Counted from the stretch's first letter, positions 1-37,763 are shown. The stretch is DNA of 64,000 nt from Callorhinchus milii (GCF_018977255.1 NW_024704742.1:34474001-34538000), one strand, 5' to 3'. The notes: generated from the sequence alone by a model not told the origin. Program-made: numbers and translations.

Positions 1-2850
1 CATGGTCAGCATTGATGCCAGGTTAAAATGAAACTCATGAGGAAACACATCTGGATTTTATATCACAGGTGAGGTATAACCACAGTAAGTGAAGTTAGTC
101 CACACCATTCACTAAATCGAGCTCATTCATTCAATTGCAGAGAGCTGTTCTGATTCTTTCTCCAGTATGAGTAAATTTGTCATTGTGTGCTTATAATAAC
201 TCTCGTAAAATGTTCTGTTTATAATATAACTAATATTTTACTGCAGTTATTCATGAGCTCAGAATGACAAATTTACCCAAACAAAAGAGCCAGTACACAG
301 ACAAGTTAACTGCACGTAGAAAAAGATAGCAGGATGACTCCAATATTTACTTACCTTGTTTATTTGTAAAATTATTCTAAATAAAATAAAAATTCAAATA
401 GTAATTATGCAGATGTACAGGAGATTGACCTTGATATTGCTCTTAATATGGATGCCCATGAACCAGTGTTGGTTCACGGTTTTGACATTCGGCTGCTAGT
501 TAGAATGATTACCCCCTCTTGTCTCCCAACCCCAGCTCGGGTGTCAAGCCAGGACTGTCAAGAGCCTTGGGACATTCTCCTGACATGAAAGGCATTATAT
601 AGATGTACATTTGGATTGTGTTCTATTATTAAAATTAACAAAAAAAGATTAATTTTTATAAACCTTTGATTCCAGAAATCAATTGAGCAACTGGTTTCTT
701 GGACATTGACACTGAGATCAGTGTCTGAGACTCACAGGTAATTCCTATTTGATAACTGTAGAAATGTCTATGTGTAAACTACATGGTGTAACTAATAGAC
801 CCCATAGTGATACATTGCGAAGATCAGAACATTTCTTGACAAACAAAATCATATGTGTGCAGGACAAAGATTTGTGAATCAAGAAGAGAATCCCCCAAGC
901 CTCACAGAGGCCTGGCTGTGATGCCCCCATGGGTGAATTGCCTACCGAGGGCTGATACCCACTGTCCGGCTCACACATAAAGAATGAACATTTGAGCGAG
1001 GGAGGGGAGTTCCACCAGCAGTATGGCGTTCATGGACAGAGCGTGTAGGTCAGTACTTTCAGGAGAAGAGAGGTGTAACAGTTCAAAGACAAAATAACAG
1101 AATCATCATCAAATTCAGAGACAGCAAAATTCATAGTAAAATGCTGTTCAAAATGTAATTTTGTAATATTTGGTACATTCACCACATGTTTCGGTTCAGG
1201 CTGAAAATATATTCTCATCTGAAAATTGCAACAGAGAAAGGTAGTATTACAGTTATAATATTATTGAACTAATTTTATTCTGCAGGAGAAACATTATACC
1301 CTTGTGAATGGGAACAGACACTTGGTCTCCTTCACTTACAGCTAACAAATTCCAGATGTATGATGGGTTCCATATGTCAACTGGTAAACTGAACCTAAAT
1401 AAATGTGTCTAAGCTGAAAGGGCAGTTAATATTATCATCAGATATCAATTTTGTTAGAGATGCATAAACCTGCTGGTGCAAGAAGCTATGCAACCTATCC
1501 AGGATGTTTAACTTTATAGCACCCCTTGTCCTTTTGTGTTAATGGTGTAACTATCTCCTGTTGCAGGTTTTCACTAGCATAGATGGCGAAATCTGCTGGA
1601 ACAAGTCCTAGTGTATTTTTACTGCACTTAAAAAAAAGTAATGCACAAAATAATTCAGAAACGTGAACATTCTACTTTATTGGATTCATCATCTCATAAA
1701 TGTGTCAGCCTGGCTCGGTTGGTAACACTCTCACCTCTGATTCAGATGATGATGCTGACACTCCATTGCAACGCTGGGAGTGTGCTGCAAGGTTGGAGTT
1801 ACCGTCCTTCGCATGAGACAAGAAAAACGAGGTTCCGTCTGCCTGTCCAGGTGGACGTTAAAGCTCTCATAGCACTTTTTGAAAAGAGAAGGAAGTTTAT
1901 CCTGGTGTCCTGCCAACAATCCCCAATTAAAATTGCTCACCTTCGCCATGACTGCTTGTGGGATATTGCTGCACGCAAACCAGCTGCCACATTCGTCCAC
2001 AAAGTACACAATCCCATCACTTTACAGTATCCTCTGAAGCTCTTTGAAACATCTCAATTGATGTGATAAGGGGCTATATCAAATGCAAGGATTATTATAC
2101 ATTAGAAATTGCTTTTAGCATTAAAGCTCTTTTTATAGGTAATGGGATCACATTCAGAAGTGGCAAGGACATGATGGAAACCATTGTAACAAATGCATTA
2201 AATTGTTTGCAGCTTTCTTCTTTGCGATTTACTTCATAGATGTTTGTAATGTGTGCAAGTATGCTACTGTGTTCACTAAAGTAAATCCTGTCAAGCACTT
2301 TGACATGCTGTTGACATGAAAGGCTATGTTAAAAGCCTGAGTACTATGGCAGCAAGTATACATAGTAAAAAGCAGAGCAATGATACTGCAAGATCACAAG
2401 ATTGGTTTGGATAAAGAAGGCCCTTTGGCCCCATCTGATCTCATCCTTCCAAAACATACATCCTACCCACCCACTCAACTCCAACATAGCGTCAAGTTGT
2501 TTCTTAAATTAGTCAAATGCCCTTCCTAGCGATCTGTTCCATTTGTTAATTGCCCTCTGAGTATTGCCCGTGTCTGTGGAAAAAAACATAGCAGTGCAAG
2601 TGCGTCAATTTCTCATGGTCTTTGCAATCTTAAAATATAAGATCATGTAGAGTTTTGGAAAATTCCTAAATTCAGACTTTATTTGGAACCCACTTTTGTG
2701 GTGGTGCTAAACTAGCTTCCAGGTGGCTTCAGCAATTTTTATTTCTGATGGTAATAACTGTACATTTCAGCATCCTAACAATAATAGCAAGAAATATTTA
2801 GAAAGGTGCTAACAGGACAAACAACATAGGGGTTCATGATGCAATATTTG
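1..2850 (-). pseudogene. Highly degenerate, compact ENPEP-like tandem paralog (relics of exons 1-5, probably 7 and 9, and 10; runs off the left edge)
   Basis: 1110-1218 encodes MRIYFQPEPKHVVNVPNITKLHFEQHFTMNFAVSEFD, which aligns to exon 4 and has an intact acceptor. Collinear weaker relics: exon 1 (about 2100-2850), exon 2 (about 1495-1607), exon 3 (about 1340-1413), exon 5 (about 664-854), exon 10 (about 1-125). Confidence 0.75.
1701..2097 (+). mobile_element. Deu-domain-type SINE (SacSINE1/AmnSINE1-like)
   Basis: GTGTCAGCCTGGCTC head, central GGTGGACGTTAAAG core, L2-like tail. Related copies at about 3786, 8730, 15690, 31330, 34100, 44643, 47930(-), 49238 and 59340(-). Family name is from recalled similarity, not a search. 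Confidence 0.75.
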
Positions 2851-3240
2851 CAATGTGGAAATTGAGTAAAGTATTGGAGGGCCCCTGCCATGACCCACTT
2901 TGCCTAAGTAGGAGTGCAGATAACTGGGGCAAGACGTGTTTGTAAACCAAGCACAACATGATAAAAGGGTTACCTCGAAGTTCAAGCGATTGCAATTGAT
3001 ATAAGATCAGAAACTCTTCACGTAGCAACTAAAGCTGAATTTGAAGCCTCTTCGACCTAATTTGGTGAGGTGCCATTTGCCTGTTAAATTTAGATATCTA
3101 AGTCAATCTGAGATCCTTAAATGTAAAATTTCTTTGACGTTAACTGGTTCTGGTTCAGTCCCACTGTCTTATATTCCTGCTTTTTATTTATGTGAGTTGA
3201 AGACATAAGCATCCCAATGTTAATACTTGATTTTCCATTT
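2850..3240 (-). pseudogene. Decayed leucine-rich-repeat coding segment with LRRCT cap
   Basis: Frameshifted translation: TVGLNQNQLTS / NFTFKDLRL / LRYLNLTGKWHLTKL ... LQSLELRGNPF / SCCAWF ... PVICTP. This fits the LxxLxLxxNxL and NPFxCxC consensus. Confidence 0.6.
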
Positions 3241-3785
3241 CACAATTTGCTTTTGACTTATTGTGGTAACCTCCTTACTGCGGAGCAGTTCTGCTTTCTT
3301 CAGTCTCTGTACAATATCTCGTATTGTTTTTACATAGCACCCACTATTGTTAAAATAGCAAGGTATGTTCCATTGAAAACGCATGACAGACTTTGGGCTT
3401 CTTTCACTACAGTAAGGTTGGGAATGTTTGGCTCGCACTGAATTCTGCCAGGAGTAAATAGTAACCAGGCAGGATCAAAACACACTGCATTAACTTTTGC
3501 TGGTTCCTGTTTTACATGTGGAAACTTTGTAAATCTTTTGCACAGTAAATTTTGAAAACGCATATTTGTTTCACAGCAACTACACTAAGCTTATGTACTT
3601 AACTTCACTCTTAACTTCCTGCATTTATTGTTGCTCTGGTCAATTGTTATATTTATTTGCTACTCACAATTCTCTGTTCCATTTACTCACTTTTAATCTC
3701 ACACTAGATCACAGAAGATTTTGAAACATGTCTTCGAATCCATTGCTGAGGTCATTTATATTTGTGTTCCCTTTATTTTCATTTT

Positions 3786-4180
3786 GTGTCAGCCTGGCTC
3801 AGTAGAGCTTTCGTCTCTGATTCAGAAGGTTGTGGGTCCATGGCCCAGGTTGGAATTTGAAACCCATATTGAAACGGGGTGTGCTTCACTTCGGAGATGC
3901 CTTCTTCCGCTGAGATGTTAAACCAAGGACATTAAAGATTCCATTTTTCGTTAAGGGAAGGGATTTTTTTAATCAGTTTCCTGGCCAACAATCCCCCAAA
4001 TAAAATTGGTCACTCAGTTCATGGCTGTTTGTAGCACATTGTTGTATGCAAATCAGATGCTTGTTGCACCCACAAAATATACAGTCACTGCACTTTACAG
4101 TATATCCTGTGAAGCACTTTAAGATGACTCGGTGACTTGATAAGGCATTATATTAAATGCCAGCATTATTATTATTATTG
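3786..4180 (+). mobile_element. Deu-domain-type SINE
   Basis: Homologous to 1701-2097. Confidence 0.75.
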
Positions 4181-4704
4181 CTGATTGGTATAAGATTTCA
4201 TTCAGATAGTGCAGTCTATCTCTAGTTACTACCTTTCATATTTGAAGATAATCCTTATCCACACCTTACCCATTCTCTTTTTTTGTCTTTCAGACAGTTG
4301 GATTCTTCACTTATTTTCTCAACACTGTGTCCTACCCACATTATTCTCTTGTGCCTGACCTTATGTGCTGACCAGTAAATCTGAATTATACTGCATTTGT
4401 GCCCTGAGAACATCAGACACATTTTTCATTTCTCAACATTTGTGAACTATACCAGTAATAAATTTGTTCCAAAAAATACTTTATTTAAACATGTGGTGTA
4501 AATAAAATATGTCATGGCCAGCAGGGGAATGTAATAAATAACCCAGCCCATGAGATTGACTGGAACACCAGCCATGACTTCACCCTTCTTGAATTGTACA
4601 GGCAGCCTCTCTAATGTATATATTTATCATATCTCATTGACCAAATATGGAGAGGATATTTACTAAGAACAAAGAAGGTTCAGGGGTGACCTGATAGAGG
4701 TCTT

Positions 4705-7772: not shown

Positions 7773-7922
7773 TTAGGCATTGACATTGTCCTGTAGCCAT
7801 TGCGCTATTGTGGCCTTGTTGTTTTTTAACCAGTTGATATTTGTCTCTACAGTTTCAAGTGCCTGTTTACGGGGTACCTTTCCTGCTCCAGCATCCGGGT
7901 ACTTGTAAAATAATTCGTTCAT
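7773..7922 (-). CDS. ENPEP: ENPEP exon 20 (terminal coding exon)
   Basis: [57 protein letters not shown]; 150 nt. Confidence 0.95.
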   Translation of the reverse strand: MNELFYKYPDAGAGKVPRKQALETVETNINWLKNNKATIAQWLQDNVNA

Positions 7923-10900
7923 CTGGAAAGGGATAACAGTAGATATATTGGAGTAATGAGGCAAGCAAGGTTAAATAATGGTAATCTACCAACAAAAAAG
8001 TTTTGGAGGGAATTCTGGTGCATACCTGCCATAATTGGAGTTCAGTGTTATATGAAGTTGTTATTCTTGGAATTAGTCTTCCCAGGTTTCTATCATTGAT
8101 GGTGAATCTGAAAATTAAACAGAATGTAATTTTAGTAACAACAATTTGCATTTATATAGTGCCTTTAATGTTGGGAGGCTATCTCGAAATGCTTCACACA
8201 ACTGACTGGGAGCCTAAGATGGGGGTGAGGGGAGTTAAGGAGTTGGGGTGGGGGTGGGCAAGAGATGAAAGGTGGAAAGGGAGGGTACAAGGTGGAGGGG
8301 CTCTTGGTTGGAGTTATAGGGAGCAGGGAGAGAATGGGCTGAAAGCTCATTCACTAACAGTGGGGCGGGTCAGGCCAGGATATGAAGCAGGCCTGTGATC
8401 ATTGAACAAATGGAGTGACCAGGATGATAGATGTCAGTTAAAGAAATACACCAGGATGCAATCAGGATATACCGATGATAGCCTTACCTGAAGACTTGAC
8501 TGTAATTGGCTGCTTATAATTAAAAACAATACAAAGTTATCAGCCTGATCAGGGCCATAATTGTCACCTCATTTCCTATTAATAGCACTGAAAGATCATG
8601 TAACTTTCCTGACTATTGATTCCAGCAAATCCTTCATCCTACACTTCCAGATGTTTATATCCAGCAACACCATTGGGCCAGTCCCAGTTACATAGAGGAA
8701 TAAAGATCCCACTGCTCTGCCCAAACAATCAGGTCCTTCGGATGAGATGTTAAACCGAGGTCCTGTCTGCCTGTTCAGGTGCACGTTAAAAAATCCCATG
8801 GCACGATTTGAAAAGAGAAGCAAGTTTCTCTCTCTCTCTGTCCTGGCCAATAAATCCCCCCAAATAAAAGTTAAAAATTAGTCACTCACTCCATGGCGGT
8901 GTGTGAGACACTGCCATGTGCAATTGGCTGCCGCGTTTCGCCCACAATATATACAGTCACTCCACTTTACAATATATTCTGTGAAGCGCTTTGGGAACAT
9001 CTCAACAACGTGATAATATGATAAATCAAATGCGAGGATTATTATTATAACAATCAGGTGGGTCCAATTTCTATTTCGTAATGAGATTCTTTAATAGGGA
9101 ATCAGTGTTACCAAATGGGGACTCATTCCAGTAACTGAAATTACAGCACACTGACGGCAGGAATTCTGCTTCAATGCAATATATTTATAGAGGAGAATTC
9201 ATAAGGAACAACAGGAATTATAATCTGATTCCTGATTAAGGAAGATTTCTGTTTTGAAACAACAGAAATTAGACCCAAATATATTTTAGTTCCTTCACTG
9301 GAGTGATCATTTCAACATTATGAGGAATCCCATAGCTCAGTGGTTAGAGCACTCACCTCGCAAGCGAGAGGACTTGGGTTCAATTCCAGACAGGGCGAAA
9401 TGTTGTTCCTTACTCAACATGCCTCTGTTTACCTAGCAGTAAGTAGGAACCTGGTTATTATTAATTGGTGGATCATTTTTCCGGGGGAAGTAATCCCTTC
9501 AAAAAACAATAAGGTTACTCAATCCACGATTGTTTGTGGGATACTTCTGTGTGCAATTGGCTGCCGCGTTTCACCCATAAAATATCCTATCAATTCACTT
9601 TACAGTATATTCTGAGACGTCTCAAAGACGTGATAAAGTGCTATATCAAATGCAAGGATTAGAATATATTATACACTTTACAGGACTTAACTCGGGAGTT
9701 TTGGTTAGTCTTGGTTTTCAAATACCATCTCTCCCTCCAACTTCCTTTGCTGTCAAAGTCTATCCAATTCCATACTACCTGTTTTCACTGCCTCCCTGAG
9801 CAAACTGTTCCACATGTTAACCCCCTTCTTCATAAAGTAGTTAAATCTAAATTGTCCATCCAACTTTCTCTTTTTTAGTTTAAGACAATGAACCCATTGT
9901 TATGGACCTCAGATTCGGGCTGACATTGATAGATGGTAAAACCATTTATATCTTTGTGAAATTACCTTTCCACCAAGTATTCCCAGTTCATTCGTGCCCA
10001 ATCAAAGGCCATTGTTTTCCCGTACTTGTTGAGTGAAATGTAACGGAGAACAGTGAACACGTCTTGACTTTTAATGAGACTTTCATTCTTGATATAGTTT
10101 AAGTATCTGCATGACAGAAAAAAACATGAACATTTTAACAAGTAAAGCAAACAGAATTATTTTTTTCCCCAGTGAGTTATTCTCGATAAAGAAATTCATA
10201 ATGTATTCTAGAAGCCTCATACATGTGATCAAAATTAATGGTATAAATATATTAACATATTGCTATTCCTTGTTTAAGGTATGTTGTTCAAATATGTGTC
10301 TCAAACAAACCCTCCTCTGCCAATTTCTAAAGCACGCAGATTTGGTTGAAACTGCTTGGATTTGTTATATTGAATTTCTGTTCTGTAGGCCTGTTATTTT
10401 CAACATGTGAGCAGATTTTCAGTGTGAGCAGCCACACAAGAGTATTGCTGTGGGTAAAACATGTTTCACATTTCTATGGATGTGATGTATGAATGAATGT
10501 GAGGCGGGGGAGTGGGGGCGGGAAGCGGGAGAAGTTATCAACTGAATTCAATCCTGTTCTGAACTGTTGTCCAGACACTGTACATTCCAACAGGGAATGG
10601 GAGTCTTGTCCAGTTTTACTTTCCTAGTTTGAGTGCACTGAAGTACTCTGAAGTACACAGAAGGCATGCCAGCCTGGCTCAGTGATAGCATGCTCGTTTC
10701 TGAATCACAAATTTGTTGGTTCGTAACAAATATACAATCATTCCACTGTAAATCCTGTGAAGCACTATGGGTCATCCTCCCGACAAAACACGCTATACCA
10801 ATTATTATCATTATTAGATACAGCTCTCCTGTTTTCTGCCTGAAATCAGCTATCTCAGCATAGGCCAGACATCAAACCTGGGACTTACCCAGAACATGCC

Positions 10901-13900
10901 AATTAATAGAAGGCCATCAAGGAATCCTGATTACAATCTTTATTTGTAAAGCTAGGTACAGCCCTTGAATCAGTGCCAGTGCAGTATTTAATTCAAGTTT
11001 ATTTATGAGTTGGAAGAAAAACCGTAAATAGAAGGTTGTGCAGTAGAGCAACAGAGAGGACAGTGATTCTCTATAAAGTATGCAATATTGTAACTACCTC
11101 CCCAACAGCTGGATATTCTCCACCGAAGCCAGGCCATACATTAGTTTGTCTTTCTCCTGAGCAAGTGGTGTCTCCTGGTAACGTTTAAACATATATTCCC
11201 ATGAAGATACATTTCCTGAGGTCTGCATCCCATATCGGTACACAAGTAAACGTAAATTTGGTTCGACCCTGAAATGGAAACAGACATTCTACCATTACAG
11301 CAGCAACAATAATGTGCACTTACATAGCAGGTTGCACATTACACCATTCACCTACAAAATATGCAGTCAATACACTTTACAATAAATCATGTGACTCTCT
11401 TTGAGACATTCTCCTAACGTGGAAGGCCCTTTATCAAATGCAAGGATTATTATTAAGATATGATAAACATTTTTGCAAAGGCAATGGGGGAATCATTAAT
11501 GTCAATGGTCTTTTCATTTTTAATTTACTCAAGTCTGGGTGACACTAATACAAAAGGTTGAATGGCTTGCTACTGTGTTGTAGATTTCTGTGGTTTCCTA
11601 ACAGCTAGTGTTAACACTGAAGAAAATCTATTCACCTGGCCCCTGTTAACCATCTGTTAAACAATTGAGAGGCATTGCTTAGTGCTTCCTCATCTCCCAT
11701 TTGACACGCAAGTCCCAAAACATCTGTCCTCAATAACCTAGGAACAAAACAAAAGTATATTTTTACAATGAGTTACATGAAGTAACAGAAGCCTCATATC
11801 ATAATTGTCTGACAATGAAGAATTTAAAACCTCTCCAAGTGTTCCCCTTCATCTTTCCAGCCAAGACTATGGACGATAGGTTTAACCTGATTCTTCCAGT
11901 ATTCCTACAATACAAGAGTTAATTCATACAATCAACAAAATGTTACAGCACAAATAGACACCATGTGGCCCATTGCATCTATGATGGTTCACCTCAATGT
12001 TGAGAAAAAAGTGCAAATACTTTGAACTTTGTTTTACCTGGAACATAGGGTAAAGAGTATTATCGTCCTTGAGCATGTTTTCAATATACAATGAGGATTT
12101 CACCGCTGTTACCCAGGGTAAATATTCAGTTTCATTCTTCAGATACTTGGTCAGATTTAAAGGCACAAAGTAGTTCAGGAGAGATGCTCTGTAACGGCAG
12201 TAAAAGTTAACGGAAGTACCATTTTGATAATGAAGGTGACCTATTTAGTCTAAGGAACAGCAAACATCCTTCAAAGGATGTTAAAGCCAACATTATTGGT
12301 TTGTGCAAGCTTTATACGGTTCCTACTCATAACAGTTATGCCTGCATCATACAGCCAATTAACATACATAAAATCATACTGAAGTATGTTAAATTAAAAG
12401 AAAATACATTCCATTTTCCTACATCCTTTCTCATTATACTATTGCCATAATTAGTATGTAAGTCAATTGTAGCTCCCCTGCCTCAGAACGATTACAACTG
12501 AACACAACATGAATAAGTCCTGGGACTATTCTGGTCTGCACATCTCATTACTACATCATGCTATGGATTTCACACTGAAACATTTGTGGAACTTGACCGA
12601 GAGGTATTATTAGGGTGCATTTTATTGATACTGGGCCTTCTATAACGACTACAATGAGACTCCCTCTGTACATATGGTTCATATTCACTAGAAAGTGTGG
12701 TTTGTCTGCCCTTTGCTCATATTGTATAGGACTTGTATAGTAGTAGAGAATAAAGATTGTCTTCCTATCAGTCTGGGGTGGATTTAAACCCAAGTCCTAG
12801 TGTGAAAGTACAATGTTCCAACACTATACCACAAGCCTTCCAACCTTTCCTCCCCCCAAATTGTCCACTAAATGCTTTCTAGTTTAAAAAGTAAAGCGTT
12901 GTGTTGCTCAGGCTTACCTTCCAAGTGAAAATCCGTCATCAATAAGTCCTGTCCGATCAGCGACTGAAAAGACCTAAACACATAAGGAGGTGTCAGTCAG
13001 TTGCAAATAGCTAGTGTTAAAATAAATGGTTATGGTTCCTGTTGCTTTAAACTCACTTTGAAACCTCAAGTGAAGAAAAGAAGATCTGTCCTACAATGAC
13101 AACAACTTCACCAGTTACCCCTTTTACATAGAGTAACATTGTGAAGCCATTTTCGGAGACGGGAATAATTACAATGGTTTGTTACCATGTGACCCAATGG
13201 TTTGGGTCTGAAATGCTGTACACTGTCCAGCGCCTTGGGATGTCCTCCTGACGTGAAAGGCGCTATACAAATGTAATCTTGTTGCTGTTTTAAAGGAGCA
13301 ACATGGGGAGAGGAGAAAGTTGACTGAGGGTGTAATCCAAAAGGTGGGTTTTCAGAAGGGTTTTAAAAACCTTGAGTGTAAGGTGACAAGATTTTGGGAA
13401 GGAGTTCCAGAGAGCAGGGAGATAGTGTTTGAAAGCTCAGCTGCTAAGGTAGCAGAGCTTAGAGTGTATAGCAGGCTTGAGTTTGTGATCTTACCTCATG
13501 CTTCTTTATGATCTGTTCTATGATTTTATCCCAGGTTGGTTCTTCATAGTTTGCCCTGTAGAACCCCACATGGTTTGTATTTATTTTCAGTAACCCATCA
13601 GTAGTTGAGTTATAAGGCAAATCAATACCTACATATAGAACACGTAAGAACATTTAATAGGGACACAATTCACACCGGCATGAGGTACACTGCATCGGTT
13701 CTTTTATGCTATACACCATTTATTATTTAATGTACAGTATTATAATATAATAATAATCCTTGCATTTAATATGAGACAGCTCAAAACGCTTCACAGAATA
13801 TACATTATTGACTGTATATTTTGTGGGCAAAATGCGGCAGCCAAACAATCAATCGTGGACTGAGTGACCAAATTATTATTATTATAATGTTTTTCTTGAA

Positions 13901-16900
13901 GGAATTGATTACCCCCAGAAAACGATCCGCCAATCGACTAACAACCAGGTTCCTACTTACTGCTAGGTAAACAGAGACGTGTGGAATAAGGAAACTTGCC
14001 CAACGTTTCGCCCTGCCCGGGAATCAAAGCCAGGTCCTCTCTCTTGTGAGGCGAGTGCTCTAACCACTAAGCTACAGCACTTCAGTATACAATATTGTGA
14101 GACATAATTAAAATCCTAGAATGTTTTTTTAAATCTTACTACTTCCCTACCATAAAAGCTATTTTTCTGATCTGAGCACTCCCTAATATTGGGATTTATC
14201 AAGACAGTATTTAACAAGTGGAATGGTTAACTAGGTATCGTTGTTGATATCAGGATGCTGGACTCATTTATTAGTGCTGTGAAGAGAGGAGAGTAGGTAG
14301 GGTATTCTGGAAGGATAAGATCAAATGGGCCAAAGGCTACCCTGCATGGAATCATAGAATCACATAACACAGAAGGAGGCCATTCGGCCCATCGTATCTG
14401 TGCCTGCTCTTTGAAAAGAGCTACCTAAATCAATCCCACTCCCATACACTCTCCCCATAGCCCCGCAAGCTTGCTCTCCCCAGATAATTATCTACTTCTC
14501 TCTTAAAAGTTGTTATTGAATCGGCTTCCACCACCCTTTCAGGCAATGCATTCCAGATCCGAACAACTCGCTGTGTGAAAATATTACTCCTCACCTGTTT
14601 CTTTTAACAACTATTTTAAATCGGTGCCCTCAGTGGAAATAGTTTCTCCTTGTTCAGCCGATCGAATCCCTTCATAATTTTGAAAACTTCTAATAAGTCT
14701 GTAACTGGAGGGCGCTATGTAAGTGCAAGTTATTGTTGTTCTTCATTTGAACCCTCCCAGTGACCCTGGGTAATTTTATGAAAGGTGCAACCTGTGATGT
14801 GTTAATGATCACTCTAATATTTGGCCAGTTAATAACTAAAGGCAACGTTTCGTCTGTGGAAGTGACCTTACCCCACGTCATTCTGTCACATTGTCTGGGC
14901 CACAAGCCAGTTATAACACACACTGGATTTCTGGTTAGCAAGGGCAGGATTGGAGTGCTAGTAAACTAGCAGGATATCATCTTAACTCAATGAATAAATC
15001 AGAATTATAAGATCACAAGAATGATCTGGATGAAGAAGGCCCTCCAGCACATCCAGTCTCTACCACCTTTCCTGACTACTATACCAATTGTTGATAATGC
15101 ACTCCGTAAAGAAAAACTTACTGGTATCTGTCCTGAAACTCCCCTTTACAACTATAAACCTATGTCCTCTACAATAGTCTGTTTCTTCTTTAAAAATGTT
15201 TGAATAAGTAGATTATGAAAAATAGCATTTCAAGAAAAAAATAAATAAAAACTGTCAATTTATAAAGCACCAATACAAATCTGTTACTAAATGCAAATGA
15301 GTCACACTTGATAATTTCATATCTTTGAAATCTCTCCACGATGTGATAAGGTGCTGTATCAAATTATATTATTATAAGGATTATTATTATAAACTTATGA
15401 TTTCATGCATACCTGTTGGTTTTGTCAAATTGAGAAAATCTGTCCCATTCTTTCCTGTTAGTGTATACCACTGGAGAGGAATATTCCACAAATAGCTGTA
15501 ATTGAAAGATTAGTATAAATAGTCAGTATGTTATGAGATTTGTCAGACTTCTTTGCAAATATTTAATGCAAAAAGAAAGATAATTTGGAACTTCATCATT
15601 TGTGATCTTGGGTAATCTTGAGAAATTTGCTGCCTCTGTTGTATTAATGATCACAAAATTGAACAATGTGGGCAGTCAATAACTAAAGGCAAGCTTAGCT
15701 CAGTTGGCAGCAATCTCGCCTCCGAGTTAGAAGCTTGTGGGTTTAACAACAAATTACATTTGTATAGTGCCTTTCACATCAGGAGGACACCCCTTTAAGC
15801 CCCATTTGTGACTTGGAACTCATGTTCCAATATAGTTCTGAGGATGTGTTGCATTGTTGGAGGAGCCATCCTTTGAATGAGCCGTTAAACTGAGGTCCTA
15901 TCTGCCTGTTTGAGTGGACATTACAGATCCTGTTAGGGGGGATTCCTGTGCATAAATGGTCTGCCACGTTGGCCCACAAAATACACAGTCACTCCACTTA
16001 ATGGTACATCCTATGAAGTGCTTTGAGACGGCCTCCTGATGTGAAAGGCACCGTACCAAGTACAAGGGGTGTCATCTATTAAGTGTAAAATATATAATAT
16101 TTTATATATAATTTTTATTTATCTTTAAGTATTTTTGTTTAGCCTACCCTCCCTCCCGTCCACCCTTCCTGATCCCAACCAGCAGCTTGGGTATGGATCC
16201 CTGACTGTCAGGCGCCTTGGAACTTTCTCCTGACGTGAAAGGTGCTATACAAATGTAATGTTGTTGTCGTCTAACCTATATGATATAGGACTCTGTAATA
16301 TCTATATTTATAGTGATAGAATCAGCACTCTCTCCCTGGAGGTATTTATATGAATTACTTCAAGCCCTTTGGGACATCCTCCCGACATGAAAGGCGCTCT
16401 ACAGATGTAATTTTGTTGTTGTTGTTGCTGTTCAAATTAATTATATATTGGCTACAATATCTTACTTGAAAGGTGAAGGAGGTTCTTCTGGATTAGAGCT
16501 GGGGTCTAAAATGAAGCGTGATTGTATGATTGTTGATTCCTTTTGAACTTGCAGCACTGGATACCCCATTTGGTTAGTCCAGGTATCCATCACTTCTTTT
16601 ACTTGTTTACCACTGACCTAGACGAGGAACGGAAACAAAAGACGTGTAAGGAGAGTAGATCGTCTGGGAAGCTCCCTCGCAGAACATTCATTATCAAAAT
16701 GTAAAATGTCACCAATGCAAACAACAACTTGCATTTATTTAGCAACCTTCATGCGGGATCTTGGAGCGCTTGCAATAACTCAAAAATTTGGTCTTACCTC
16801 AGCTTGGGCTTTCCAGAAGTCATCTGTTTTGGCATTCTTAAATTGGTTATCCTTCAGATATTTCTGAAGATAGAATTAAATATTTCAATATGTTTTGCCT

Positions 16901-19900
16901 TAACAGTTCATACATAAACATATTTGTTGATAAGCTTACACTATTGTTTTCCTTCTACTTTCTTTGTCGTCTCATGACTATGAACCTGAACCTGAAGACA
17001 GGTGGGTAAACAGCTACCAGAATTCTGCCACCATCACTTCAAGGTGAACATCAGATATTCTCTCAATCCCTGCAGGGGATTATCTGGCATCACTTGTTGT
17101 CCTGAGTGTGCCTGAGATTGGGAGCTCACCATATGGAGAAAGCAAAGGAATTGACCATTGAATCGTACCACTTTGTAAAACCACATATTGGAGCTCTAGG
17201 AGTCCATGCTGCCATACTATCCTCCTTTACTATGAGCAGAGCAACCTCACCTGACATCCCCGCTGAAACAATTCTGGAGTCATCCAATCCCTCAGCATAC
17301 GTAGAATTGATGCTCCCTGGATAAAAAAATGTGCTGTGAACACATCTATCTACAGCAATCCGCTTATTATAACAGACAGTATTATTGCACTTAATAAACA
17401 CATGAACACTCAGGTCTACCTGGCAGGTCCCTAAGTTTGGTAAATACCACACAATGCTCTTTTCTTTTCAAATCATTCAATGTCTTCTTCCTTCCAAAAT
17501 AGGTTTAGCTCTATGGCAGATCAAATATTAAAACGATTAGGAGTTGGTCCAATAAATACAAGTTACACTACAAAACAGTGTTGATTCAAACCAAAAAGGT
17601 AACTGAAAGAGAGATAGAGGGCAATACCACTTAACTGGAAAGAGTGCACTCACCCGGTGTTAGTTATTGAACAATCAATAACTAATAATAACTAATAATC
17701 CTTACATTTAATATAGCACCTTACATATCAGTACACTTCACAGGATTTATTATAAAGTGTAGTGACTGTATTTTGTATCAAGTTTTTTTTGTATCTGTTT
17801 TTTTTAAAAGTTAGTCATATATTAATAATCCTTGCCTTTGATGATAATAATCCTTGTATTATTATAGTGCCCGTCACATCAGGATGACGTCTTAAAATAT
17901 GTCACAGGATTTACTGTAAAGTGTAATGGCTGTATATTTTGTAGGTGAATGCAGCATCCAATTTGCACATAGCACAAACAGCCAGGAGGGGAACAACCAA
18001 TTTTATCTGGGGTCTGTTGGCCAGGACAACAGGAGAAACTCCCTTCTCTTCACTAAGAGAGCCAATATAGCCAATCTGACACCTAACACAATAAATGCTA
18101 AACAAAGTTGCAAATTCTACCCCTCTCTGAAATATCCTCTTCACAACTATTTTCTGTGGTTCACAAATATAACACCATAGAGAAGGTGTAATGTTAACTC
18201 AATCATAATTAGTAAAACCAGTTCTTACCTTGCTATATGAGATGCCATCAAACACAGAAGTAATTTCCGCTGGTGTTGACACATTAACAATTATTGGATG
18301 GGAAGATAACAAAGCGTCATCAACCATGACGGACAAGACATCATCTATAAGAATCTGATCCAGCTGTAAACAAAACCACCAGAGGTTTCACTGAGAATTG
18401 AGGGACAGAGAGTTAGAACAATTTTCTATCTCTGGGATTTAGTCTTTAATTCTACCCAGTCTGATTCTTTGTTAGGCGTATGGGGACTATGAGGAATAAG
18501 CTTTAGCATTCTTAACCCAGTTCCTGGTGAGCTTGGGGTCAACAGTGCCAATTTAACAACAATTTAGCACAATTTGCCAATCTAATTTGAAGAGAGGACA
18601 CTGTTGACAGCTTTTGTCCAAACCAGCTCCATCCATTCCTCAGTGTTGAACTTGCTCACCTTAACAAACAGAAAAATCTACAAACAACTTCAAGTTGCAA
18701 AGAGAAACTTCTTCCAGTTACCATGAGTACATAATGCCAACCCATGGGAACGCCACTCCGACACAATGTACTTCTGGAGCAGAGTTTCCACAGATCAATA
18801 TTACATATTTCCAAGTTCCTCTTTGAGACTGAGAATCAATATTAAGCAACCCTACCAGAAATGGCTGCAATTTAGTTCCAATGTTCTTGTTAAGTGCTTT
18901 TCAGGAAGAGTTCTCAAGTCAATTTCAGTAGGCACCTTGTTAGCTATTTCATGCTATTGGCTCTCATTCCATTATTCCTGCTTCCTCCCTTGCTGCTTTG
19001 CACACCATTTGCGGCTCTCTTTCAATTTACAGACAAGACCATGAGCCATACATATGTCTGTAATTGCCATTAATACAGATGCTTAATTGACCAGCAAGAA
19101 AAGCAGTCAAAGTGGAGTGAGCATTGCAATAACAAGATCCCAGAGATAGTCCATTCAAACAGCTTGGTTTAGCTGCACACCACACATTCAGTTAATTTTT
19201 GCTGGATTATCTTTTAACAAATTGTTCACACCCACAATAAATTAAAGTAATCCCTGTCATTTATCTTTAAGGGATTTCATTCTGTCAATCTTTCTCCTCT
19301 TTGGAAGACATATTGGTAATTCAACTGACATACAGTTTGACAGGCATCACTGGCCCTCTGGTATGTCACCTAAATGATCGTTACCCGTGAGCTTTGACAG
19401 TGAATGCTAGGAGTCTAGTTGACCACAGAATCCATTAAAGCCAAGCTCAGCCCTGTTCTCATTCAATATCTGTACACACGCACACCTCCAGAGATCTGTG
19501 GATATCTCTGAGTAGTGTAACTGAAGGGTGCTGAGACCTTGTCACTTTGCACACCATTTGCTGCCCTCTTTCGACTCATGGACAAGACCATGTGCCATAC
19601 TTGTCTGTGAGTGCCATTAATTCAATTATTTAACTGTAGCATCCAACTGCTGCCCCGACTGAGATTCTCCAACTCAGGACATACCAGAATAGCATCTTTT
19701 CACTTTGTATGTGCCAGTGCTAATTTTATCCACCAGACCATCGGATGATCTATTTTGATATTCTGTTTGGTGTATTTTCTATTTTGATATTTTATTTGGT
19801 GTATTTTCGTTTTCCTAAAAACTTTTCGCACTTAAAAGAAGTGGAGAGGAAGATCTGAACAGTATGAAATACAGGAGTTAACTTACCATTTCCCATTCAG

Positions 19901-22900
19901 ATTCAGCTGCATTTACACCAATGTATTCAAAGAAACTGGCGAATCCCTCGTTCAGCCATAAATCATCCCACCAATTCATGGTCACAATGTTTCCAAACCA
20001 CTAAAAGTATAAACAGACATTTAATTGTATTGGTTGCTCTGTGGTAGAATTCTTGCTTGCCAAGCACATACAAGCACATGTATGTGATTCTATGAAAAGG
20101 AAAAATATAAAAGAATATTTGGGGATAATAATAGTAATCTTTGGATTTGGTATTACGCTATTCACATCATAGTGGTAAGTTCTTTTAACAACTGCAGTAA
20201 ACCAAAAGTTAAAACTGATTTCAATAATTTGGCATTGTGGAGTCCTGTAGCTCAGTGGTTAGAGCACTCGCCTTGCAAACGAGACACCTGGGTTCAATTC
20301 CAGGCAGGGCGAAACCTTGGGCAAGTTTCCTTACTCCACACGCCTAATAATAATCCCTCCAAAACAAAACAATAATAAATTGGTCATTTTCAATTCATGA
20401 CTGATGTGCGCAATTGGCTGCCGCGTTTCGCCCACAAATATACAGTCAATTCATTTTACAGCATAGTCTATGAGACGTTTTGAGACGTCTAGAAGACGTG
20501 AAAAGCGCAATATCAAATGCAGGATTATTATTATTATATGGAAAATTCTCCAAAATGCCTCATAAATAGAATAAATATAGCACTTTGTCACATCATCAAA
20601 ATGTTTCAAAGTGTGTCACAGGTTCTTAATGTGAAAGCACATTCTGAGCAGCCCACAAATAATATCCGCAAAGGAATTTTTTATGACCAAAAATTCCTTC
20701 TGAAGCAGATCTCATTGGGAGTTTCTGTCTGAAGCATCTTTGGTGAGACATCAGTGAAACTCATGTTTTGATGAGCACTTTTCAGCCCCATTATTACTGC
20801 CCCAGCAATTGGCCTGTCATGTAACTTGGAAGCTGAGTATTCCTGTGATTTAATCTTTTGTGCTGTTACTATACCTGGTGAACAAGTTCATGAGCAACAA
20901 CTGAAGCCACACGCTGCTTATTAGTGGAAGAAGATTCTGCGGGATCATATAGCAGGTTGGTTTCCCTGTAGGTGATCAGTCCCCAGTTTTCCATTGCACC
21001 AGTACCAAAGTCTGGTATGGCAATCATATCTGTAATGCAGAGAACATCATAAAAAATATCAAGAAATCGGAGTTCAGATGGCAGAACTGTGTTCATTATG
21101 ATCATCCTACAATTTATGAAAGATATAACATTTACTGTAATACCATTCAGGGAGGATTAGGCACTGTCATAAACAAACTCTCACACTAGCACGGATCAAT
21201 AACTTCAATCCTGTTAGAAAGCAATAGTTTGGGTCCATAAAATTAGACATTGATTAATAATAGTAATAATCTTTGCATTTAGTATAGTGCTTTATCATGC
21301 AATAACAACAACAAAATTACATTTATAGAGCGCCTTTCACGTCGCGAGGACGTCCCAAAGCACTGAACAGTCAGGTGTCAGGGCCCGAGCATGGGGGAGG
21401 GATGGTGTACAGGTGAGGGAAGGCAGAGAGGTGGGAAGGAGACCAAAGGTTCAGTCGAAGAGAAGGGACTTGAGACCGGCCTTGAAGGAGATAAGGGAGG
21501 AAGTGAGGCGAAGGGACCGTGGGATGGAGTTCCAGAGTGTGGGGGCAGAGAGGCTGAAAGCACGGGCACCGATGGTAGGGTGGGTCAGGCGGGAGACCTG
21601 GAGCAGGCCGGAGCCCAATAAACGGAGAGAGCGGGCAGGTTGGTAGGGAGTCAGCAGGTCAGAGAGATAGGAAGGATGCAGGAAGGATGTATCAAAGAGC
21701 TTCACATTATGTACATTTGCGCACATATGTGGGAAGCTGGCCAGTCAGTGTATCACACTGTTGATACAGTGCGGGTTGACAACCTACCCTCATTATAACA
21801 AATCACATTATATCAGGGTCTGATGAGATGTTAAACCGTACACGTAATGTTAAAGATCTCTTCACACTATTCAAAACAAGAAGAGAATTTCTCCCCGCTA
21901 TGTTGCCAATAATGCCCAGATAGAATTGGTTACTCGCTTCACTGTGGGAAACCATACAATGTAATATATTGGACATCCAAAAGGCATTTGACAAAGCACC
22001 ACATGAAAGACTCATTCACAAACTGTGGTCACTCAGTTTCAAGGGCAAAACATGGACATGGATTCAGAATTGACTAAAACGGAAAGAAGCAGAGGCATTT
22101 GTTATGGGAGCTCGTTCAAAATGGGAAGAGATGCGGATGATCTGTAGCCTATGGAGGGAGGAGTTGGGGAGGCTGACAAGCAAGGAGTTTGAATGGTCAA
22201 GCCTCAATGTTATGAATGCATGCATGAGGGTTTCAGCAACCTGCGGTGTGAGATAGTGGCGGAGTCAGGCGATGTTGCAAAGGTAGATGAAGGCAGAGCG
22301 GGTCATGGCACAGATGTGGGGTAGAAAGGATAGTTGAGGGTCAAACAAGACACCAAGGTTCCAGACTGGCTTAGCAAGGTGGAGTGTACATCCATGGATG
22401 GTGATGCTGTCAGCGCCTGAGTTGTGGAGGCGCTGACAGGAGCCAATTCAGAAGAACTCGGTTTCGTCGACGTTCAACTGAAGAAAGTTAGCTCTCATCC
22501 AGGACTTGATGTCTGACAAACATTCTGTCAGGGCATCAATGGTCCTGGAGTCAAGGGTGGAGGCAGAGATATAGAGTTTGGTGTCATCCGCATACATATG
22601 CAAGTTGACCCCATGTCTGCAGATGATGTCACCAAGAGGGAGCATATAGATGTTGAAGAGGAGGGGACCAAGGACAAAGCCCTGAGGAACACTGCACGAG
22701 ACAGTGCGGGGCTGGAGGAGATACCGTTTGTGGAGGTGAGTGGAGGCGGTGTGAGAGGTACAATCTGAACCAAATGATCCAAATGAATTACCCTGGTATT
22801 CCAAGCAGCAAGGACTGAAATGCAACAATTGTGGTGAATGCGGGTGTCAACAGTAAAAATGCTGGCAGATGCAGGACATTTCCATCTTGTCAAAGTACTA

Positions 22901-25900
22901 GGAGGGGTCAGATTCACTCCCTAACCTGTGAATAACTGACAAAGGGTCAGATCATGCCGTTGAGGTTATGTGTTGCATAAAATGCCGCCGGTGTTAATCA
23001 TCACGTCACATACCGCAGTTTTCACGCCATAATTGTATTAAGACAAGTCAATGAATGGCAAACAACATACCTAATTTGGGAAGGGAATAATTTATGGCGA
23101 AATACTCCTCAAAGAAGTCAAATATGATTTTTGTAACATTCGCTGCATACACTGCCGTGTGTTTCTGTTGAGGTTGGACGTAAATTCTCAGCTAAGAAAT
23201 GCAAGATAAAGAGAAAAGTAAGGTAAGTTAAGGTAGACAACATTATCGAATTCATTTTACTCTGTATGTAAAAGCATTGTAGAATTATATCCTTTTTTGG
23301 TGGTTCCTTTAGTTTGCAACAGTTAAATCCCAAGTGAATGCGGAACTCCATGATTGTTTTTTTGTTATGAAAATTGTGCTCATCGGGGATGTGGAACAAC
23401 TTCCTATTTTGGCAACCAGTAACAATCTCAAAGAATCCCAGGTCAGGTACAGCATTACTGTATGAAAGTAGCTCCCTCTACCCAGCAATGTGCATTGGCT
23501 CCAAATTCAGTGGAGTACCCATTCCCTCAATACACTGCACTCGGGTATACAAGCCAGTGTAAGACCTATTTTGAGAGAAATTATCAATTTAGTGTTGGAT
23601 TATGGCAGTTTGTGCTATGAGCCTCATTCAATTAAAAGCTGGGCTGAGACTGTCATTTCACATTGGAGCATCCAATCCCATTAGTGTGACCTGGATTCAA
23701 ATCTAGAAGCCCAAAAAGGAAGAGCCTAATCCACTGTGCTGACCTGTTACCCTTCAAGTTCCATCTGTTTCAGTGTAGGTATGGCTATAATGCCTCTGAT
23801 GGTCTCCACATCCCTTCTCTCTCTTTCCCCCCACCCCCCCTTTCCCCCCCATCTGTTTCTCCCCCCCATCTGTGTCATCACCCCACCCCCGTCTGTCGTC
23901 GTCGTCCCCCACTCTCCATCTGTCCCCTGTCCCCCCGTCTATCCCCCGCCCCCTCGACTGTGTGTCCCCCGCATCTGTCCCCCATCTGTGTCATCCTCCA
24001 ATCCCCCCCACCGGTCTGTTGTCCCCCTCCCGTCTGTCGTCCCCTTCCCCCCGTCTGTTGTCCCCCCATCCCCTCCCTCCACCGCCTGTCCCTCCCTGTC
24101 TTCCTTATTTAATAAATATATATTTAAAAATATACAATCAATATAATTTACAGTATATCCTGTGAAGTGCTTTGAGATGTCTCAATAACATGATAAGGCG
24201 CTATATCAAATGCAAGGAATAATATTATCATTATTTAGTTACATTATAGATGCATATTAAGGACCATTGCCCATGATATTCATTCTTTGTTTTCTATGCC
24301 TACAGATATAACACTAAGAACAGTATGTGTCGCTCATGGAGTGTGCAAACAATACCATACAATATACATTGATGCAGTAAAACTCACATAAAGTCATATC
24401 AGTCAGGACCACAATATTTAATATGACTTACGCAAAGTCCCAATTGCAGACACGCTGTATAAATCATATAAAGTCCAATTTAATCAATAATCTACACTGC
24501 GCATACTTAATTCAAAGCAGCCAGTCCTTTGTCACTGCCAGCCGGTAAGTAAAGATAATAATAATAAACCTTGCATTTGATATAGCATCTTATCACGTCA
24601 TTGAGACATCTCAAAGGGCTTTACAGAAAATACTGTAAAGTGAATAGACTTTGTGGGCGAAACTCGGCAGTCAATTGCGCACAGCAGTGTCCCACAAACA
24701 GTCATGAGGATGTTATGTCGGGAAGACATCCCAAAGCACTTAAGCTCAGAATGGGTCATTTGATATTGGAACATACATAACACATTGGTCCAGCAATCTT
24801 CAACGGCTTACTGATACTGTTGATATTTTCAAAGAACTTACAGGGATTCCTCGTTTTGAATTGCTTTCTATAAAGTCAAACTGATGAACAGCAAAACAGA
24901 CTAAGTAGGTGCTCATTGGTACAGATTTTTGAAATATCGTTTTTTTCTGTCCATTGCCCAAGTCTTCAGTATGCTGAAAGGCAAAATGAAATTTTATTAC
25001 AAGTACGACCCATAGCTCTCTTTGGAACTCATTTCAGAAATGATCCAATGTAAAACTAAGCTAAATTTGTATCCTAGTTCAGCTCTTGTTCTTTGCTGAG
25101 TGAAGTAAGTGACAGTGGGGTGCTATGATAGACTTTAGCACCAGTGGGCTAGGGAAAGGAAGAATCAGTCATTGGTGAATAGCCCTTAAGTGTTCACTCT
25201 GTGAATTCACGGATGAACAATGAGTACTTGGGTGAAGTATAGTAGGACAAGCAAAAGCATATGGAACTCCATCCAGTAGGTTTCAGCACTCTCAACAGAG
25301 AAAGAGTTCCTCAAAAACAAAACTGAGCTTCTCACCATTTACGATTCTAAAGGCATATTAATTTTAAAGGTATATTAATTTTATTTTTTTCAATGTTCAC
25401 CTCTGGTGGCATGTTTGAAAGAACGTTATACAGCTCGCTGTATATTAACGAGATGGTGTATGTTGCCTTCTTATTGGGTTCATCAAAACAGGGGAAAGAT
25501 TTCCGTGCATCAGTTGGTTCGTGATCCGTAGCTGCAATGAACCTGTTAGGAAACGAAAAGATCAATATAGGTATTTCACAATAATGAGAAAAATGAAACA
25601 CGACTACTGTATAAATATGGTCAGTAATTCAAAAAGCATTTCTGATGTGACCGACATCATTGCTCCTAGATACAGTAATAGGAAGGCAGCACCAAATGGA
25701 ATGCCAAATCTTCCTCCTTGGGGAATTTCTAATAATCTGTTCTGTGAAAAAAATTGGTCAGTCGGGAGCCTGAAACAAATGAAAACCCATCACCGTGCTT
25801 AAGAGCGGCTAAACCAAACTGAGAATTCCATGCATACCACATACACATGGGAATTCCACAGATAGATTGTTGGAATGATATGCACACTCTCTTCCTGGAG

Positions 25901-28900
25901 GGATGCATCCTGTTTACCTAATTCCAGAAAGTATTGGGCGCAGGTTGGCAAGAGCCAAGGCTTGGGTACCCCCAAAGTGTGCTCTGGGGTAATCCTGGAG
26001 TCTAACTAGCTAAAACCACATAGCTTGCCATTGATATCACATCTGGCAAGCTTTCCTGCTGCGCATCGAGCTAGAACCACCCTACCCATTAGGGCTTTGG
26101 CTTGCAGGATTAACAGGAGCTGAGTGGGATGACTCCCTGCCCCAGTGACTAGTCTACCCTTCCAGGTCCTGCCAATGTGCCAGACTGGCTGTGCTACCAT
26201 CAACAGTGCTCTGCAATACTGCAGATCCACCTGGCTCAGAAACCAGGCCCCTGAGACCACCACAAACCGCCACTCAATTCTGACATTCCGTTGTCAAGCA
26301 AGTCACCTTGAAGCCAGCTTAGCTCCCCTCCCAGGAGGATCATCCTGCCCATGCTATGATCCGTTCTACCTTCGCCACCTCCACAACATCGCACTGGCTC
26401 AACCACTGCCTCTCCTCTTAGGCCACTAAGACTCTCATCCACACATCTGTCACATCTAGGCTTGACTATGCCAACTCCCTGCTTGTTGACCTTCCCAACT
26501 CTTCCTTCCACAGTTGCAGATCATTCAGAACTCTGCAGATTGTGTCCTTTCCCGCACAAGGCTCTGTGACCCTATCATCCCCACCCTCACCCAGCTCCAC
26601 TGGCTCCCCATCCCCCAGAGGATAGAGTTCAAAATCTTTGGCCTCGCATACAAAGCTCTCCAGAGCCTTGGTCTGTCCTACCTCTGACATGCTAATATTA
26701 TATCGAACTATCCTCTCCCTCCGCTGACCTGCTCCACATCCCCCGTCCAGCCTGGACCACCTTAACATCAGCGGTCAGGCCTTCAGCCTCTCTGCCCCTA
26801 ACCCTCGCTTTGCTCCCTCCCTTGTCTGCTTCAAGGCACGTCTCAAGACCTTCCTCATGGGTTTTCCCTTCACAGCTTTTTATGGGATACTGCTGTGTGC
26901 TAATTTGATGCCATATTTAACTACAAAATTCACAGTCATTGCACTTCACAGTAAATCCTGTGAAGTGCTTTGAGACAATGTGATAAGGCATATGATATCA
27001 AATGTAAGAATTATGTCCACTAGATAATGTAAATACAGGTTCACTTATGGTCTGTATAAGGCGAGAATGATTCAAGTCCAATAAACAAAATTATTTCCAA
27101 AAGGCTAAATATGTTTCAACAGTATTAAAATTAGGTAAATTAAGAAAAAGTCAAGTAAATTATTGTCAACGTATTTTACTGTGTTTAAATAACTTTATTT
27201 GAACTTATCTTCCAAGAAATGCCTATAATATTACCTCCCAATTTCCACATTATATCATAGATAGTTACTTTATTACCAAGGATTGAAAGAAAAATCTTTT
27301 GAAAGTTACTCAAATGATAATTGAATTGCACATTAGATTTAGATACATTGTGTAAACATAACTCCAGCCCAGCAAGATCAAATTGACATTTAAACTATTA
27401 TGAGAAAATAGCTAACCTCATAATAATGGTCAATAACACACTTGCATTCATTGCACAGTGAATCAAAAAGGCCAGTGAAAAATATCATTGTGTAGAAAAC
27501 TAGTCATGCAACCTCAGCCTGATTATGATGTATATGTACACAGGGACAAACATCATTCTTAAATTCAATCAACAATAGCCTTTGATTATAGCAATATTTA
27601 TTTATAGTCCCTTCTGAACCTTTGTCAGTCTATAGGGTATTTGAGTTTGACGTTGGATTACACAAACTCCATTAGAATGAACACCTGTTCAAAGCAAATG
27701 GGCACCATTATAATGAATTTCAACCCCAATATTTGGAAGTGTGTTGCAGTGTATTATTTTAGTGCTCCCAGCAAATCTGAATGTCACCAAACACTTCCCA
27801 GATGCAAATGCTATCACCAGGTGCAAAACGTGGAAAATAAAGAAAGGGAAGGATGGAGACTGGCTGTTGGGAATAGTTTACAGTTTAATAAAGTAGGAAA
27901 ATGAAATCCTGACTTAAACACAGAAACATTTGGATAAATAACTATGCCCTGACTAGCTCACTGAGTATTCTGTTTAATACTGTGAAGCTAATCATATTCA
28001 TTCATAAGTGAGGGAGAGGAGAATAAAGGGGTATTCGTGAGGGGAATAGAAGGGATTGAGCATTGCATGGAGTAGTTGGGCTGAATGGCTTATATCTGTG
28101 CTATATTACTCTATGTAACGCAATGTAACTCAGCATTTAATTCTATGTTTTAGATTTGAAGCTTATCCACCACAACCAGTATCATAGTCATTATCTGGGT
28201 TCTTCAAACTCTCATTGTAAAACTTTCTCCATAATAGTATCAGCAGGTTGGCAGGAGCAAAGGCTTGCCCCCAGAGTGTGTGTTGGGGTACTGCTGGAGT
28301 CTAACCAGCTAAAATCGCATAGCTTGCCATTCATATTGCTGTCCGGCAAGCCTTCCTGCTACCTGTCCAGCGAGGTACACCCTACCCATTAGAGCTTTGG
28401 TTTGTAGGGTTAACAAGAGCTGAGTGGGATCCCTGCCCCCAGTCTGCCCTTGCAGGTCCTGCCGATGAGCCGAGCTGGCTTTGCTGTCATCAGCAGTGCC
28501 CTGGATTACTGTGGACCCACCTGGCTCAGGAACTGGTCTACTGAGACTGCTACTAAGGCCTGGCTCGATTCTGATATTCCATGGCCAGGCATGTCACCTT
28601 GGATCCAGTTTAGCTCAAATGGGACTTGCTTACCTCTCCCACCCACCAACTCCCCACCCCAAGGTGGATAGTCACCATTTGGTTGTTTGACATCCGGCAA
28701 GCACATAATAAAACCAAAATTATTAACCATAATAAATAATAATTATGAGACATAATAACATCACAATAGTTAACACACTTTAGTGCCCATTTACTAATAC
28801 AGAATATATTTATAAATATTTCCACATATCAGTTTGATCAAGGCTATTAAAGCTGATAAGAAAAATGATGAGGCTTTGCATACACTCATGCCACACTGAT

Positions 28901-37750: not shown

Positions 37751-37763
37751 TTTTTTTGTTTTG

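Follow-up and report, generated by a model that had tools for sequence, protein, structure and literature searches.

Does the DNA immediately downstream of the Callorhinchus milii (elephant shark) ENPEP gene hold the remains of a second ENPEP gene, and how much of such a gene is left? Here, we analyse a window of 64,000 nucleotides (G000:C1:34474001-34538000, in a genome of 991 Mb), numbered from its first letter, with positions to its left given as negative numbers. A preliminary description had proposed that relics of exons 1 to 10 of a dead tandem ENPEP paralogue are packed into positions 1-2850. The live gene was mapped by tblastn with 120 M1 aminopeptidase queries, gathered using one exon, and the ENPEP exons of the window are 100% identical (tblastn) to the C. 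milii ENPEP models P0036 and P0037. The live gene and the two parts of it that matter below are these:

7776..37468, minus strand: live ENPEP, 20 exons (tblastn with ENPEP orthologues)
37468-36824, minus strand: live ENPEP exon 1 (Pfam Peptidase_M1_N match, E 1.1e-18)
7925-7776, minus strand: last coding exon of live ENPEP (tblastn)
23069..23281, minus strand: parental segment comprising live exon 4 (23191-23069) and the last 90 nt of intron 3 (100% to P0036/P0037 within the exon; splice sites read)
18208..18370, minus strand: parental segment comprising 7 nt of intron 6, live exon 7 (18363-18229) and 21 nt of intron 7 (tblastn, splice sites, alignment)

The claimed region 1-2850 is read on the same strand as live ENPEP and lies 4.9-7.8 kb downstream of its stop codon. 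Neither the 21 long open frames in the 40 kb to the left of the window nor 3 more at 4707-5948 match a Pfam family at E<=0.01, and the next gene was not found among them.

One part of the proposal is borne out directly. The peptide claimed as exon-4-like is encoded at 1218-1108 on the minus strand, within an open frame at 1260-1033, and homology to the live gene runs from there into the neighbouring intron:

1108..1218, minus strand: exon-4-like pseudo-exon (tblastn, ENPEP profile, DNA alignment)
1219..1298, minus strand: copy of the end (~80-90 nt) of ENPEP intron 3 (identical to 23192-23281 at 61 of 80 aligned bases)

Against the window's own exon 4 peptide, the block has 39.0% identity over 41 columns with 4 gaps (tblastn, E 0.001). 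At E<=1e-3, it is matched by eleven of the 120 M1 aminopeptidase queries, with no other match in 1-3500. It collects 35 HSPs at E<=1 in a search from -40 kb to +8 kb, over which the other clusters outside the live gene have 1-7 each. A profile built from 52 full-length ENPEP proteins (930-980 residues) scores the exon-4-like frame at 8.7 bits over profile positions 299-342; elsewhere in 1-3300 the profile attains no more than 0.1 bits, shuffles of 1-3300 reach at most 5.9 (0 of 200 reach 8.7), and 69,900 bases of neighbouring real DNA reach at most 4.9. All shuffles in this work are first-order Markov resamplings rather than exact dinucleotide shuffles. At the DNA level, live exon 4 aligned to the minus strand of 1-3300 scores 39 (maximum of 27 in 100 shuffles). 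With its flanks included, live 23281-23118 aligns to 1298-1148 with 114 identities in 165 columns, for a score of 47, where 300 shuffles reach at most 21 and 336 tile-strands of real DNA at most 19. The exon copy itself is identical to live exon 4 at 76 of 111 aligned bases (68.5%). Searching the whole genome with the 76-residue relic frame gave live ENPEP exon 4, 22 kb away, as the best non-self match (E 0.11; 8 candidates scored).

The intron-3 copy closes with a pyrimidine tract followed by a CAG acceptor, which stands immediately before the homologous first codon; the homology of this copy ends abruptly at 1298, inside intron 3. Beyond these limits the homology does not extend on either side, with the observed flank scores reached by 193 and 187 of 200 shuffles. 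Where the homologous donor would be, the exon copy lacks a GT. It contains no stop over its 37 codons, its gaps are net in-frame (12 nt in total), and the parental frame continues to a stop at 1033. Chance may account for this intact frame, or it may reflect an earlier coding phase or present use. In Pfam, neither the relic frame at 1033-1260 nor any of 3 further frames in 1-2850 matched a family at E<=10, in a test under which the 43-residue live exon 4 by itself obtains only E 0.003.

The remainder of the ten-exon map did not survive comparison with random expectation. When exons 1-14 were aligned singly as DNA to the minus strand of 1-3300, exon 4 alone beat all 100 shuffles; the best scores of exons 1, 2, 3, 5, 7 and 10 were equalled or exceeded by 3, 12, 34, 66, 47 and 95 of 100 shuffles, respectively. 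The order claimed for them fails as well: their best places are at 3165, 1691, 652, 3243, 1112 and 32, out of order, and only exon 10 falls where it had been put. Protein alignment of exons 1-3 to 1299-7700, upstream of the exon-4 copy, and of exons 5-6 downstream of it gave scores reached by 21-97 of 100 shuffles. A relaxed tblastn search, which the preliminary description had proposed as a check, returned equally weak matches on both strands of 1-1300.

Several of the short words on which the map was drawn are present, and they carry little information. The two exact 9-mers cited for exon 10 exist, at 102 and 32, and the 3 shared 9-mers amount to chance: a count of 3 is reached in 55% of 500 shuffles, whose mean is 3.1, and 7 are shared by the opposite strand. 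As for the exon 1 words, PLPVRR, to which PLPIKR at the locus had been likened, does occur in the real exon 1 peptide, whereas KYCI and YSGF are absent from it. Of the words read as exon bounds, GTAAGT is present twice and TTTCAG 3 times in 1-3300 on this strand, where the window averages per 3.3 kb are 0.83 and 1.88, and an isolated splice-like word therefore counts for little. Part of the zone assigned to exon 1 is interspersed repeat, and the supposed NIAFHV motif (2310-2345) lies mostly within repeat-homologous DNA:

1700..2104, no strand assigned: high-copy SINE-like repeat, not ENPEP-derived, in the zone claimed for exons 1-2 (33 of 49 blastn matches of 1-3300 elsewhere in the window)
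2277..2337, no strand assigned: repeat fragment under the YSGF/NIAFHV motif (matches 4096-4161 and 45193-45250)
2389-2470, no strand assigned: interspersed repeat (blastn of 1-3300 against the rest of the window)

A paralogue whose exons 1-10 all survive in order within 1-2850 would account for the genuine exon-4 block and for the cited words, such as the two 9-mers and PLPIKR. Given that the other exons score at chance and out of order as DNA and protein, that the profile finds nothing above 0.1 bits besides exon 4, and that the true copy of exon 7 lies elsewhere (below), we give this reading almost no credence.

The second genuine piece lies outside the window. In a comparison of the 40 kb left of the window, with repeats masked, to the live gene locus, the first match joined live 18258-18370 to -465 to -354, and repeats aside, only the exon-4 block was also matched on the same strand. 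The full alignment, live 18370-18208 to -354 to -508, scores 36 compared with a maximum of 17 in 300 shuffles:

-354 to -508 (L002:9646-9492 = G000:C1:34473492-34473646), minus strand: exon-7-like block (DNA alignment)

Its exon part occupies -361 to -487, and the exon 7 proposed near 355 is not supported. The copy opens at a CAG acceptor and closes at GTAAGAACTG, both splice sites being at homologous positions, and it is identical to the live gene at 83 of 124 aligned exon bases (66.9%) and at 17 of 21 bases of the intron-7 flank. Indels of +2, -3 and -7 nt disrupt it, and the parental frame meets a stop after 35 codons. Homology ends abruptly at -508, and a repeat begins at about -523. The exon-4 and exon-7 copies share a strand and stand in parental order, 1461 nt apart as against 4705 nt in the live gene, a minimal test of order with two pieces only. 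The preliminary description had allowed that the exon-4 block might be an isolated duplicated exon with no other collinear match; this holds inside the claimed interval, and it fails once the left flank is included.

Further scans found only these two exons. All 20 exons with 60-nt flanks were aligned to -15 kb to +7.6 kb, where exons 4 and 7 alone stand out, scoring 36 each (shuffle maxima of 16-22, 20 shuffles per exon). Exon 6 scores 19 at 7548-7501 compared with a shuffle maximum of 18, a marginal match that is out of order. Control scans with the 20 exons gave, besides exons 4 and 7, scores above 21 only for one flank repeat, at 25-27. No exon match reached 21 on the gene's strand from -40 to -15 kb or in 38-64 kb by the same alignment of 20 exons. 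Altogether, DNA alignment over -40 kb to +7.6 kb and over 38-64 kb detected no relic of exons 1-3, 5, 6 or 8-20, and targeted protein alignment detected none of exons 1-3, 5-6 or 8-12. Three kinds of candidate were rejected along the way. An intron-flank match of exon 19 with a score of 25 is an interspersed repeat. The segment 3417-3322 (minus strand), resembling ENPEP residues ~582-613 (7 HSPs from the 120 queries at E<=1; 4.9 profile bits), is attributed to chance, being within the shuffle range, out of order and without DNA support. Finally, live-intron matches to the left flank that looked collinear (8137-8227, 13296-13440, 14207-15164 and 20234-20535) are interspersed repeats with several or both-strand matches.

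What kind of copy left these two blocks? Both keep intron sequence and splice junctions at homologous positions, which identifies a genomic copy and not a retrocopy; the exons are not fused, and the copies of exons 4 and 7 are 1461 nt apart without exons 5-6. Homology beyond chance, retained introns and junctions, one strand with parental order, and disabling lesions in the exon-7 copy are together the features of an unprocessed pseudogene. Features of a functional M1 gene are lacking: there is no homology to exon 5 or 6 (GAMEN and the HExxH...E zinc site) between or around the relics and no Pfam Peptidase_M1 or Peptidase_M1_N match, and in place of a complete collinear set of open exons, 2 of 20 exons are found, one of them frameshifted. 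With the catalytic exons 5-6 missing, exon 7 broken and no Pfam family matched, the copy does not amount to a functional paralogue; it is unable to encode an aminopeptidase and most likely has no function.

We consider it highly probable that the two blocks are fragmentary remains of one unprocessed (DNA-level) tandem duplicate of part or all of ENPEP, lying downstream in the same orientation. The proposal of a dead, ENPEP-derived relic in tandem, on the same strand and immediately downstream of the live gene, is to this extent upheld by the copies of exons 4 and 7. Part or all of ENPEP would have been duplicated at the DNA level beside the live gene and in its orientation, in a single event giving rise to both blocks, and the remainder of the copy, including exons 5-6 with GAMEN and HExxH, would then have been deleted, overwritten by transposable elements or decayed past detection. 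Only 2 of the 20 exons are detectable, although uniform decay of a whole copy should leave more at ~67-76% identity, which points to a partial duplication or to later large deletions. The intron flanks are slightly more alike than the exons (61/80 and 17/21 versus 76/111 and 83/124), the opposite of what simple neutral decay of the copy alone would give, in numbers that are small.

Copying on a smaller scale would also leave two blocks. Without any gene-scale duplication, short segments of ENPEP, of about 190 and 155 nt, may have been carried downstream by templated patch insertion during break repair, or by capture or transduction with a mobile element, in one composite event or two. Just two short blocks are detectable, each ending abruptly, the exon-7 block is bordered by repeats (about -523 to -569 and -745 to -1113), and 400 nt upstream of the exon-4 block there is a SINE-like element, all of which such copying would accommodate. 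It would not predict that the pieces share a strand and the parental order, 1.5 kb apart and beside their source gene, and their similar exon identity (68.5% and 66.9%) fits one event. An own-genome DNA search with the parental exon-4 and exon-7 segments gave self-matches only; this finding of no other close copy of either segment is a weak point against small-scale copying, for the search is blind even to the relics and so excludes close copies only. On balance we regard copying of this kind as unlikely.

Under the preferred reading of a tandem duplicate, the apparent compression of the relic probably has two sources. The relic does span less than the matching part of the live gene, as had been claimed, with 1.46 kb compared with 4.7 kb for exons 4-7. 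Between its two blocks lies the following:

1..1107, continuing 353 nt past the left window edge, 1461 nt in all, minus strand: spacer between the relics, with no copy of exon 5 or 6
513..632, no strand assigned: interspersed repeat in the spacer (10 matches elsewhere in the window)

Alignments of exons 5 and 6 to the spacer gave protein scores reached by 38 and 96 of 100 shuffles, and DNA scores at chance. The loss of exons 5-6 makes deletion one part of the compression. A reverse-transcriptase fragment sits in live intron 4 at 22451-22846 (RVT_1, E 1.2e-13), and repeat-masked sequence makes up 28% of the live interval from exon 4 to exon 7 compared with 6% of the relic spacer, so that another part is probably growth of the live gene. 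The size difference would accordingly combine deletions in the copy with transposon growth of the live introns, the later growth of those introns being probably a further part of it.

The retained splice sites raise the question of use. A strong acceptor is still present in the exon-4 copy, with an open frame of 62 codons running from it, and CAG and GTAAGAACTG persist in the exon-7 copy, as might be the case if both copies were exons of an unannotated transcript, either a long non-coding RNA or a read-through isoform of ENPEP. Against this, the exon-4 copy is missing the GT of the homologous donor, the exon-7 copy carries frameshifts, and the 62-residue frame has no phmmer match at E<=0.001 among 1.84 billion representative proteins, which is weak evidence with a query so short. 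Incorporation of the two copies into such a transcript is therefore very improbable. There is equally little to favour the view that the splice signals were kept through use, in a chimaera-specific non-coding or read-through transcript downstream of ENPEP with the 62-codon frame as a past or present short coding segment. Assembled contigs of four runs, guessed to be RNA, cover 835-1251 at low summed depth and show a loose end at 1076. This end was rejected as a splice; the loose sequence maps to another contig (C28) and shares only 19 nt with the window, at 1076-1094.

How old is the dead tandem copy? The K2P distances between the copies are 0.29 (intron 3), 0.42 (exon 4), 0.44 (exon 7) and 0.22 (intron 7, only 21 nt). 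A rate of 1.0-1.1e-3 substitutions/site/Myr is given for C. milii SINE copies in PMC5499810, which also quotes a rate six times slower that its authors discarded. Taking K2P of 0.29-0.44, one published rate, a strict clock and few sites, the duplication would date to roughly ~140-210 Myr ago. The 76-81% intron identity between the copies likewise suggests a duplication within the chimaera lineage, and the estimated age falls after the holocephalan-elasmobranch split, placed at 421 Ma (PMC5499810). The expectation that an intact orthologue survives in other fishes is consequently unlikely to hold for sharks, rays and bony fishes: the introns of the copies are still 76-81% identical, and with an age of ~140-210 Myr, after the split at 421 Ma, no such orthologue would be expected in those groups. 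The C. milii genome has been described as the slowest evolving of known vertebrates (PMC3964593), and such slow evolution helps explain why so old a fragment still aligns.

The significance of the locus beyond annotation is small. It records a local duplication of ENPEP in the elephant-shark lineage, with a copy that died and eroded to two recognisable exons, and it shows how long exon-sized fragments with intron flanks remain detectable in a very slowly evolving genome. For gene predictors it carries a caution, as the ENPEP-like exon at 1218-1108 should not be called. It also serves as a worked example in which short words and splice-like motifs picked out by eye were mostly chance, and one true match led to a real but different structure. 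Our literature search found no publication joining ENPEP, pseudogene and tandem duplication.

Comparison with known systems places the relic readily. Tandem clusters of M1 aminopeptidase genes exist, as with ERAP1-ERAP2-LNPEP in mammals, and local duplication of M1 genes occurs; those duplicates are intact and functional, whereas the ENPEP relic is a dead fragment. From live ENPEP (glutamyl aminopeptidase, aminopeptidase A; M1 family) the relic is derived, with 67-69% exon and 76-81% intron-flank identity, and it differs in having no detectable exons 5-6 (GAMEN, HExxH), no Pfam M1 match and no continuous frame. Processed pseudogenes (retrocopies) are dead gene copies too, but the relic keeps introns beside both exons, and its exons are unfused. 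The closest resemblance is to unprocessed pseudogenes and their late fragments, with which it shares a DNA-level copy beside the parent in the same orientation, retained introns and junction positions, frameshifts, a stop and missing exons, while differing in that only 2 of 20 exons are recognisable and the spacing has shrunk to 1.46 from 4.7 kb. The ENPEP relic is an ordinary duplicated pseudogene of a known kind, at a late stage of erosion.

A copy of exon 7 of ENPEP lies immediately beyond the left edge of the window, in the 40 kb fetched on that side (L002; negative window coordinates), and hence was invisible in the preliminary description. A stretch weakly resembling the ENPEP protein lies within the window:

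L002:9492-9646 (window -508 to -354), minus strand: decayed ENPEP exon-7 copy, both splice sites kept
3322-3417, minus strand: weak resemblance at the protein level to ENPEP residues ~582-613, out of order

The similarity at 3322-3417 was returned as 7 HSPs with 120 queries (E<=1) and scored 4.9 bits by the ENPEP profile, and was taken as chance rather than as a relic of ENPEP because this score falls inside the shuffle range and the order is wrong. Among the sequencing-run contigs, a misleading loose end results from an exact match over 19 nt between window 1076-1094 and an unrelated locus on another contig of the same genome (G000:C28:4151121-4151139).

Interspersed repeats in the window include LINE-like and SINE-like elements, with 65-93% identity between copies of the latter in the window:

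1700-2104, and ~30 further sites in the window: high-copy SINE-like element
22451-22846, minus strand: RVT_1 (reverse-transcriptase) fragment of a LINE-like element, within intron 4 of live ENPEP
39958-40806, minus strand: RVT_1 fragment, LINE-like element
62101-63406, minus strand: RVT_1 fragment, LINE-like element

Below the stop codon of live ENPEP, contigs from four runs guessed to be RNA cover 6772-7660 at a depth of 5-23; this cover, from contigs only, is consistent with, and no proof of, a 3' UTR of ~1 kb. Two further features lie within intron 1 and around exon 1:

25808-25930, minus strand: alternative first exon of P0036, within ENPEP intron 1
36450-38360: GC-rich stretch (59% G+C) surrounding ENPEP exon 1

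In P0036, a C. milii ENPEP protein model, the start at 25808-25930 replaces exon 1 at 37468-36824. Upstream of the GC-rich stretch are long, GT/CA-rich low-complexity tracts, which produce spurious open frames of very great length on either strand.
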